From positions 57,019,195-57,083,194 of the forward strand of contig CM074513.1 of assembly GCA_037379345.1 (NCBI GenBank): a stretch of DNA of 64,000 bases, in the 5' to 3' direction. Position 1 is the stretch's first letter. Each line of letters starts with the position of its first letter. The notes under the pieces are model-generated. The model did no database searches. It was not told where the DNA came from and was given only the letters and a program-made list of their open reading frames with translations. A program made the position numbers and the translations under genes. The stretch is from Perna viridis (taxonomy: Eukaryota). Positions 22,654 to 34,247 of this stretch are shown in pieces.

Positions 22654-25600
22654 CTGAAACACTCGGGTGTTTCAAGTGTACTTCCAGAAATTATGACAAT
22701 CCACAATGCGATGACACATTTATGAATTCAAACAGTTCATTTTATCAGGCTGACTGTATGGCAACTCTTGGTACCAGGAATGGATTATTCATGGCAACCC
22801 AGTGTGTCAAAATCGTTGTAGACGATGGTAAATAATCAATATTCTTAAATCAAGATACAGAATGCATTGCTTAAATACACGCACACTTGCTCAATGTTAT
22901 TCTTGATCCAAGTTGCTCTCTGTTCTCAGCCGCGGGTCCAAGTATGGGCATGCCGGGCCTAAAATTAAGATTTTTTTTGGCATGAAATTTTGATTTTTCA
23001 CAAATTCTACCCCAAAATTTTTCTTTCCTCCCTTAATTTGCTCGGCATGTTAAAATTCTATTTAAACCCCTAACATGAAAACCTCGATCCGCCCCTGGTT
23101 CCGTTTAGGGTCAGGGGACGACCATTAGATTCTTAGGAAATATTATTTCCAGCCTGATGAAAGTCAGATTATTTATTTTCACCATAACCTTAGCTAGATT
23201 ATTTATTTTACATAGTAGTCTCAAAAGGGGGATTCTACACCACCCCCTCTTTTCAAGGACAAATCCTGCATAGGACCCCCAACCCCGACGGTTAGATGAA
23301 AACGGACGGCATTTCTATTGAGCATAGGGTAAACACAAGAATTATGCTTTCGTACCAAGTGGAGACGACTTCATCAGTGAAGATGTCTTCCAGGAAAAGG
23401 TTGAAGAGCAGAGTCAGGAAGCTCTGAAAACGGAAGGACTTACCCATCGGGGTAATCTACAAGATAGAAGTGGATGGAAAGTTCGGTACGTCTAAGATCC
23501 TCACCTTGAAGGACAGACAAGGAGGGAGCACCAAAGCATGGGCTTGCCCTACGCTCAACAAAGAAAAAGATTCCTTGCAAGGAGCATACGTTCGGAGCAC
23601 GGGATTCAAAGTGAGCAAAAAGTCCAAACACGAATACCTCTCCTACGATTTGGTGAGGAAGTAAAAAAACTAACCGAGGGCTAGGGATATGGGGTTCGAA
23701 ATTTCGCAATCCAAATTACTGGATTGGGAAAATTTTTTTGGTCACTTGAGACTTTGATCTGGAGGATTCTGGAATGAGCGGGGAGCGAGGCGTAGTCGAG
23801 CGAGGCGCGATTGGAAGAATCCTCCCTATGGCGCATGCGTAGTAAGGTCTTCACTTAAAGTGGTGGTGGAAGGTTTTTGCAGCTGCTGCTTTTCGTCGTA
23901 GTAGAAGCCAAGACATTTCACAACCCCTGAAAATTCAGATTCACCGATATCATCATCCACCAGGGCTTTGCTCACTGCATCTTTGATCTTGGATTGGTTG
24001 GATCTGACGATACGCACGGTATCTTTATGCTTTTTACGCTTTTTGCGGATGCGCTTGACTAGCACCGTCAATACCACCACCACAATGGAATTCACGACGC
24101 CTAGGGAGCTCAAGGGGAGGCATGCCACTGCACCTACTCCCGTGGCGGCGGTGCTGAGGGTGCCGGTGGTGCAAATGACGTTGAGTACGGCACACGCATC
24201 CAGAGCAAAAGACACCGCTTTATCCACTCGTTTATAGGTCTTCGATAGTCGGACGTACTTATGCATTTCGGATTTGAGCTCTCGCTTGATCGATTCAATC
24301 CTAGCTTCCCTATAGGATTGCTTCTCAGAGTCTACGGAGTCCATTTATTTATACCTAGAGGAGCATGCCCAAGATGGGGATGCTTTTGAAGGGGCTATTA
24401 GGGCCTAGGATCAATCCCTTACCATCGTAGAATCGACGTCCGCTCTTCAAGTACAATCCATCGCCGTAGGTATTGGGCAAAGTGCCCGGGTTGAGATACA
24501 AGCCACGACCCTGAGGTTTCACGCAGCACACTTTTCCACCCTTATTGAGGTACATTTCGGAACCCACGGCCTTTTGGATGGCTGCACTACCCAAACCGCT
24601 CGATGCACCCACGCCCAAAGCAGGTAGCACGGTTTTGGCTAGCACGGGTAACGCAGCAGAGGCGTAACCTGCGATCACGGGGAGGAATCCACCTTCTTTC
24701 AGCACGTTATGCCTCACCTGCTTCGGACTCATCTCAAAGACCATACCACCCTTACCACTCTGCAACAGCTTGGTGATGCGCTGGATCTGGCGGTGAGTGA
24801 GGAACATTTTATGCTCACCGGATAGGTTTGCATGCAACAATCGGACGCTCACGGGGCAACCCTTCTTTGCCGCACGCTGGATCTTTCCTGCCTGACCCTT
24901 CGTCAAGTTGAGACCGTACTCTTGATAATCCATTTATTTATACCTCAGGCAGATGGAAGCGTATGGTGAGATGCTCCCCTCGCAGATCGATGGGGCGACC
25001 GTCTTGATCGGTTAGATACGTCTGCATGCGGTCGATGGTTCTCAGGGTCACGGGTAAGTAGACTAGATTCTTGGGGGTCTAGATGATCTTCATGCCAGGA
25101 TCGACCGCAGGAAAGAAGCTATAGATGGTGGACTGCTGGCTGGGTGCCGTTGACGTAACTTCCGTAGATGCTATCACTATTCACTAGGATGCTATTGATG
25201 TTGATGATATTGACGATATTCTCACCCTCCGCGTAACCGGTAGTGTCACGGTCGTAGGCATACGTCTGACGCCCAAATCCCAACACGCTGCCGTTGCTAT
25301 TTATGACGTTGAAGTCCACTTGGTAGTGCCGAGCAAGGGTCAACGTTGCTCTCAGGGTCGCACGATTGGCATCAATAAGGACCTTAGCCTTGTGCTTATT
25401 GATCCGCATCTGCCGCTGGATCTCATCGTTGATATCGTCGATACCGTAGGAGCTGGTGCTCAGCTCGACGAGAAACCAGTTAGCCCCATCATCGGGAGAG
25501 TAGCGGAAGGAATTATTACCTGCATGAATATTGGGGATGGAGTAGTAGGTCTCCAGATTCACGAGGGCCATCTCGTAAGATTTCTCCTCGCGCAGTTGGA

Positions 25601-34247: not shown

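Follow-up and report, generated by a model that had tools for sequence, protein, structure and literature searches.

The element and its genes

The window, by which we mean the whole 64,000-nt stretch of Perna viridis DNA analysed here (contig CM074513.1, positions 57,019,195 to 57,083,194), contains at positions 23214-31885 a decayed and internally deleted Polinton/Maverick (adintovirus) of 8672 bp, with a GC content of about 52% against 32% in host DNA. Its TIRs are 130 bp long and 87% alike, its ends are of the AGTAGT type, corresponding to the (AGT)2-type Polinton end motif described in PMC8097293, and the flanking 6-mers, TTACAT and TTCCAT, which match at five of six positions, are likely a target-site duplication. 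The insertion lies in a host repeat (22900-23213 and 31886-32200), and an empty, joined form of the site, which skips about 8700 nt, occurs in reads and contigs. Further out, the host flanks (3996-9611, 41438-42115, 49489-51463 and 56716-57693) hold long ORFs of 223, 251 and 289 aa, together with tandem arrays of units of about 30, 42-51 and 78 nt.

The element belongs to a family, here called family 1, with at least 31 copies in the genome; the 17 copies compared fall into three subfamilies of 82-96% identity, and the nearest named capsids are from Mytilus (80-82%), which points to a bivalve host. In the window itself, Pfam recognizes the double jelly-roll capsid (PF21738) and gives weaker matches to an A32-like ATPase, an rve integrase and a PLA2-like domain, while PolB, rve, A32 and PLA2 all stand above the Pfam cut-off in sister copies. 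The rve match reaches E=1.3e-10 in a sister copy and 3.6e-4 in the window, Pox_A32 exceeds the cut-off in a sister copy, and the protein-primed PolB (PF03175) does so in two sister-copy ORFs, of which the window keeps a 5′ remnant only. One sister ORF of 411 aa (L018:6784-8019) has two further domains fused ahead of the integrase, a Zn finger of the DUF5679 type and a PLA2 of the parvovirus type. In both TIRs one and the same ATG begins an ORF that runs inward (see also L017:9373-9777 and L037:428-3370), so that PolB and the 134-aa ORF have their first residues in common.

The labels minor capsid, protease and protein VI-like are based on position, motifs or sub-threshold matches. The first was given by position to a putative gene without a Pfam match; the second marks a putative protease, with a Q..CGH.C motif and His/Asp positions picked out by eye, Pfam having matched no adenain-type maturation protease among the sister-copy proteins; and the third reflects a weak match, below the cut-off, of the 114-aa basic gene. 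Atlas searches of two orphan proteins returned unnamed or weak matches only, and a single atlas lead at 0.86 for the TIR ORF as phi29 SSB-like was not counted as evidence. The features are collected in Table 1.

Table 1. Features of the window element, with the occurrence of the start motif among family-1 copies
Feature	Positions	Strand	Remarks
TIR	23214..23343		Contains motif-less ATG (23296, +), which opens a 134-aa inward ORF in sisters, broken in window
Hairpin between convergent 3′ ends (172-aa gene, TIR ORF)	23702..23731		Flanked by A/T runs; one mismatch; score 12-15 in sisters
TATAAATAA-ATG, 172-aa gene (23826-24344)	24342..24353	-	Motif outside upstream stop; 25/25 copies
TATAAATAA-ATG, 192-aa gene (24355-24933)	24931..24942	-	ATAAA 30/30; TAA/TAG variants alternate among copies
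TAGATAA-ATG, putative minor capsid gene	25710..25719	-	27/29; MCP stop 7 nt further upstream
TATAGATAAATAT-ATG, double jelly-roll MCP gene (25727-26929, broken in window)	26927..26942	-	ATAAA 26/27
TAAATAAATTAACG-ATG, 114-aa basic gene	27276..27292	-	ATAAA 24/25; 7-nt gap between motif block and ATG
TAGATAAAGA-ATG, Cys-rich orphan gene (222 aa in sister, broken in window)	28416..28428	-	ATAAA 22/25
Head-to-head junction	29186..29204		A32-like ATPase ATG 29188 (-) and Zn-finger/PLA2/integrase ATG 29202 (+), 13 nt apart, one motif per strand
Integrase gene, Zn-finger/PLA2/integrase fusion	29202-30450	+	Compare sister ORF L018:6784-8019
Hairpin between convergent 3′ ends: integrase (stop 30448-30450, +) and minus-strand gene remnant	30412..30443		12 bp in sisters
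TAAATAAAAGG-ATG, motif-like	31660..31673	-	In frame inside N-terminal PolB region
TIR	31756..31885		Contains motif-less ATG (31803, -); PolB frame open from there in two sisters

A motif before the start codons of internal genes

An earlier, sequence-only reading had quoted eight motifs as instances of an ATAAA...ATG signal preceding nearly every viral ORF, and all eight are present on the minus strand, each with its ATG where it had been placed. The gene strand of the 8672-bp element has eight instances of TARATAA with an ATG no more than 8 nt behind it, the opposite strand has none, and two more TARATAA sites (27974 and 26838) lie away from starts. The same arrangement appeared on average 0.10 times, and at most twice, in 500 dinucleotide shuffles, which rules out chance from base composition; as the pattern was defined after the sites had been seen, the support that counts is that from other copies and relatives. 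At seven of the eight sites the ATG is a true gene start, as shown by homologues whose alignments begin at residues 1-3. The eighth, at 31662, is a Met that lies in frame, 141 nt below the motif-less TIR ATG, and, from the comparison of copies, may be internal rather than a start, because in two sisters the PolB ORF is open from the TIR ATG above it; three other copies are out of frame at this point, which decay can explain. The overlap with the upstream stop, described as frequent, is found at 24933, 26929, 27278 and 28418 (four of the seven true starts) and not at 24344, 25712 or 29188. A by-product of stop codons was rejected, the motif lying outside the stop at the protease, ATPase, minor capsid and 172-aa starts.

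The integrase start (29202, +), absent from the first list, reads TATATAAG-ATG in the window and TATATAA-ATG in most sisters. The baculovirus TAAG initiator was set aside, TAAG occurring only at the window integrase start, where sisters read TAAA, as was a GATA-factor site, given the consensus for such factors, A, G and T alternating at the position concerned. At the seven window sites, AT makes up only 40-68% of the 25 nt that precede the motif.

Across 31 family-1 copies and 11 internal genes, with starts mapped by their coding sequence alone, ATAAA occurs in the 20 nt ahead of 232 of 246 mapped starts and the stricter TA[AGT]ATAA precedes 204 of the same 246, counts that, like those from relatives below, overstate independence, copies and relatives being related by descent. 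One gene has a TAAGATAAAG variant, which fits the strict pattern in 1/25 copies and ATAAA in 22/25; TAAATG is exact at 8 of the 11 internal genes. The protease gene and two others, whose starts are deleted in the window, have the motif in sisters, and at the TIR ATGs of family-1 copies ATAAA was found in none of 30. A second family in the same genome (five loci, with 36-81% aa identity to family 1 in tblastn segments) carries TA[AGT]ATAA before its starts, within flanks unrelated to those of family 1. Family 2 (L132, L134, L135, L141, L143 and L216) includes rearranged or deleted copies and has the start motif of family 1.

More distant relatives were drawn from 82 loci, namely the best 80 of 372 metagenome matches and two viral contigs, which gave 195 homologous starts, or 128 once near-duplicates had been removed. 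With five motif-less loci (13 starts) set aside by eye, 115 starts at 41 loci remained, 99 of them with a TAAA no more than 6 nt from the ATG, whereas shuffles of the same 30 nt gave a mean of 40.2 and a maximum of 57; the enrichment upstream of ORFs in related Polintons that the sequence-only reading had named as a check is present. TAAA accompanies 24 of 494 internal ATGs in these relatives. A T stands immediately ahead of the proximal A-run in 101/108 cases against a background of 68%, a bias that points to selection on this T. AT accounts for 85% of the spacers, an A-tract is found around -28 to -22, and A occupies positions -1 to -4 in 78-88%.

The five motif-less loci (L091, L106, L111, L113 and L123) have TAAA at 3 of their 13 starts, and their genes are tightly packed or overlapping, without an AT-rich TAAA spacer. 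In a tree of 45 capsids (ORFs of at least 300 aa), family 1 groups with motif-bearing entries (99/91), and the five motif-less loci, together with one long-branch motif-bearing locus, fall outside the main motif clade. These comparisons indicate that the motif is common to a wide Polinton clade. In viral contigs, a scan for the 18-nt head-to-head pattern brought up 71 loci, none flanked by ORFs on either hand and 21 with an ORF on one side, which is no more than chance would give (random ATG rate 0.19). A protease query of viral contigs found no relative.

Position, strand and gene ends

At 65 co-oriented junctions of the relatives (again from the best 80 of 372 matches and two viral contigs), the distance of the last TAAA is 7.3 ± 5.3 nt (sd) to the ATG, compared with 25.3 ± 12.5 nt to the stop codon before it; the motif therefore keeps its place relative to the start, not to the preceding stop. 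Where genes stand head to head, both strands carry it: family 1 has a 13-nt spacer with a motif on each strand, the 8-nt spacers of family 2, CATTTATATAAATG (a palindrome) and CATTTATGTAAATG, offer TAAA(A)-ATG both ways in the two of two copies examined, and the head-to-head junctions of relatives do so in six of six. The block slides by 0-7 nt relative to the ATG while an A at -3 is kept separately, and a fixed start context would not behave so. The N-termini of the products are conserved from residues 1-5.

The other side of the genes differs, the start motif being absent from convergent gene ends. Canonical poly(A) signals are missing at three of the four convergent family-1 ends inspected, and the strongest stems in family-1 copies are those of the two convergent junctions (Table 1); the hairpin at 23702..23731 is a candidate 3′-end signal, and family 2 has a hairpin of different sequence after the same last gene. 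Hairpins scoring at least 10 occur at 27 of 182 gene ends of the relatives (about 15%), against 1-5 in shuffles, a total to which a single locus, L043, contributes 8 of the 27 (8 of its 16 ends), leaving 19/166 without it; the motif-less group has them at 2 of 23 ends. Their fold z-scores are mostly weak (-0.4 to -1.9), with two at -3.0 and -3.5. L043, an IMG/VR contig of 17.6 kb, is a divergent relative (MCP 36%) with strong end hairpins as in the Mimivirus/Sputnik pattern.

RNA data came from one raw run, in which a sister copy drew 95 reads and the window stretch 308 (many of the latter on flanking host repeats), and from six further runs in the form of contigs, which cannot reveal ends. 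No pile-up of transcript starts or ends is seen inside the element in the 95 and 308 reads, which are too sparse for end mapping. The RNA is low-level and mostly from the main gene strand, the reads over the integrase being exclusively antisense, a pattern that fits host read-through of dead copies.

Taken as a class of signal, the motif is most likely a transcription initiator. The sequence-only reading had offered an element-specific promoter or initiator, of which the promoter or initiator is supported (the motif is ATG-anchored, stands on both strands of head-to-head pairs, is kept in family 2 and relatives, and has a T that appears selected) and the restriction to the element is not.

Readings of the signal and known systems

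The reading we favour, tentatively and at a little below even confidence, is by analogy: the motif would be a poxvirus-type TAAA(T) initiator read by the RNA polymerase of a helper large DNA virus. The TA[AGT]ATAAA block 0-7 bases before the start codons of internal genes would serve as the initiator, transcription would begin in its A-run, on the poxvirus pattern with non-templated 5′ poly(A), and each gene would yield one near-leaderless mRNA that a hairpin may end. A multi-subunit polymerase supplied by a co-infecting large DNA virus is proposed because the element carries no recognizable RNA polymerase of its own, Pfam finding none among 13 sister-copy proteins, some of them unassigned orphans. 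Searches for Pox_VLTF3 and NCLDV capsid in the host genome itself gave no match, with the controls silent too, so that such genes may still be present, and neither these searches nor the scan of viral contigs yielded a candidate helper. PolB and the TIR ORF would form a separately controlled class, early or host-driven, a split that is not general, since the PolB of one relative has the motif.

The vaccinia intermediate/late initiator, TAAA or TAAAT(G/A), overlaps the site at which transcription starts (PMC5294985). The likeness lies in a TAAA(T) that overlaps or abuts the ATG and, in relatives, in an upstream A-tract, spacer and TAAA. Poxviruses differ in encoding their own polymerase, none having been found in family 1, and family 1 differs in its extended TA[AGT]ATAAA block without an AT-rich upstream core; TAAA/TAAAT stands at or next to the ATG, but with the AT-rich core lacking at the seven window sites and initiation sites that are predicted, the motif is not classed as a poxvirus promoter. 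That core, which ASFV promoters share, has a counterpart in the A-tract of relatives. The ASFV late initiator is TA(+1)TA, with a median AT-rich 5′-UTR of 9 nt (PMC7163114), and many sites here likewise have a block rich in TATA no more than about 10 nt from the ATG. The junction CATTTATGTAAATG of family 2, however, reads TAAATG in both directions and TATA in neither, and the upstream late motif and poly(T) terminators of ASFV are not general in the Polintons studied.

A further comparison is with the yeast virus-like elements pGKL1/2, with a TAAAN initiator and stem-loop ends (PMC6211774), the yeast cytoplasmic elements being derived from proto-polintons (PMC11071308). They share with the Polintons protein-primed linear replicons, TIRs, almost no intergenic DNA, TAAAN and stem-loops near stops, but have their own RNA polymerase and capping enzyme and lack a capsid and an integrase (PMC6211774). 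Protist virophages use helper promoters and hairpins, and a shared upstream motif with hairpin ends but no own polymerase reflects, in their case, use of a giant-virus helper (PMC6723459; 10.1101/2022.07.28.501842). Sputnik, mavirus and Gezel-14T resemble the present elements as small integrating or capsid-coding DNA elements without an RNA polymerase and with a shared upstream motif (PMC6723459; 10.1101/2022.07.28.501842), and Sputnik also in its hairpin 3′ signals (PMC6723459). Their hosts are protists, their helpers known and their motifs others (AAAATTGA, the mimivirus late motif), whereas here the host is an animal and the helper is postulated; the Mimivirus/Sputnik hairpin rule covers most gene ends, while the relatives, though enriched, follow it in part. 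Entomopoxvirus-associated PLVs are Maverick-related and physically associated with a poxvirus, but the two among them that encode a PolB showed no integrase on detection (PMC11296320).

Of the other readings, the one that survives best, though we think it unlikely, has host RNA polymerase II recognize the initiator inside the nucleus, guided to it by a factor that the element encodes, with no helper needed. It draws on the same positional evidence as the helper reading, on the integrase as a nuclear step, on uncharacterized Zn-finger or Cys-rich proteins as possible factors (DUF5679 on the integrase fusion, the 222-aa orphan) and on adintovirus transcripts reported in cavefish tissues (PMC8502044). 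Mavirus, however, integrates too and yet relies on its helper's late promoter (PMC6723459). Moreover, no transcription-factor family was found among the 13 sister-copy proteins (Pfam, with atlas searches of two orphans), and the shortage of canonical poly(A) signals at convergent ends speaks against polymerase II.

Improbable, too, is a signal acting in translation, as an A-rich start context or a reinitiation element on longer or polycistronic host-made RNAs. A-rich start contexts are typical of invertebrates, the A-rich positions -1 to -4 of the relatives would suit one, and the low-level RNA has the strand pattern that read-through would give. Such a signal should not slide by up to 7 nt from the ATG, nor should the T before the A-run be selected; the motif also stands before head-to-head genes that have no upstream ORF at all, and internal ATGs go without it.

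The sequence-only reading had also suggested combined poly(A)-start punctuation, in which ATAAA would be the polyadenylation signal of the upstream gene doubling as the next start, and this we now hold to be very improbable. The overlap with upstream stops at four of seven window starts agrees with it, as does the sense bias of A[AT]TAAA after stops (74 against 20 of 182 gene ends of the relatives), a bias that poly(A) signals would predict and the next gene's start motif equally yields. The motif is tied to the ATG and not to the stop, occurs in both orientations between divergent genes, a position at which no gene on its strand comes to an end, is missing where convergent 3′ ends would call for it, and often reads GATAAA or TATAAA. 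Least probable of all, and largely refuted, is a Pol II TATA box or the splice acceptor (TAG) of an adenovirus-like late unit: TATAAATA and TATATAAA match the TATA consensus and TAG lies ahead of several ATGs, but an RNA start 25-30 nt downstream of a TATA box (PMC5294985) would remove the conserved N-termini and with them the first Cys in the Zn finger of the integrase, and an acceptor is excluded by TAA replacing TAG at the same sites, with AG in the last 12 nt at only 23 of 115 relatives' starts.

Returning to the helper reading, its widest form, that a broad clade of animal Polintons/Mavericks consists of integrated virophages wired, by TAAA initiator and hairpin ends, for a poxvirus- or asfarvirus-like cytoplasmic RNA polymerase, is conceivable, and we put it forward with somewhat less confidence. 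The choice between autonomous nuclear viruses and dependence on giant viruses has been proposed for animal Mavericks and left open in the vertebrate Maverick paper, where 'promoter' is matched twice and virophage-like dependence is raised as a hypothesis (PMC8097293). In the literature searched we found no description of a start motif in animal Mavericks, while subscription papers, Repbase entries and supplements could contain one; the main text on entomopoxvirus PLVs (PMC11296320) has no match for promoter, motif, TAAAT or transcription, and the main texts of the adintovirus paper and of a 2026 framework (10.64898/2026.06.19.733378) have none for 'promoter'.

The signal itself is real and conserved across a clade. 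Shared promoter motifs are key evidence for helper dependence in protists, and a conserved start motif makes the same question directly testable for animal Polintons. Together with the candidate end signals, the motif gives a sequence signature from which exact transcript ends can be predicted, by which Polinton clades with the motif can be told from those without, and for which matches can be sought among invertebrate large DNA viruses; it also improves the annotation of start codons in Polintons. If the virophage reading is true, bivalves and other invertebrates would carry satellites of large DNA viruses still to be found, and the same signal logic would join Polintons, yeast linear plasmids and poxvirus late transcription.
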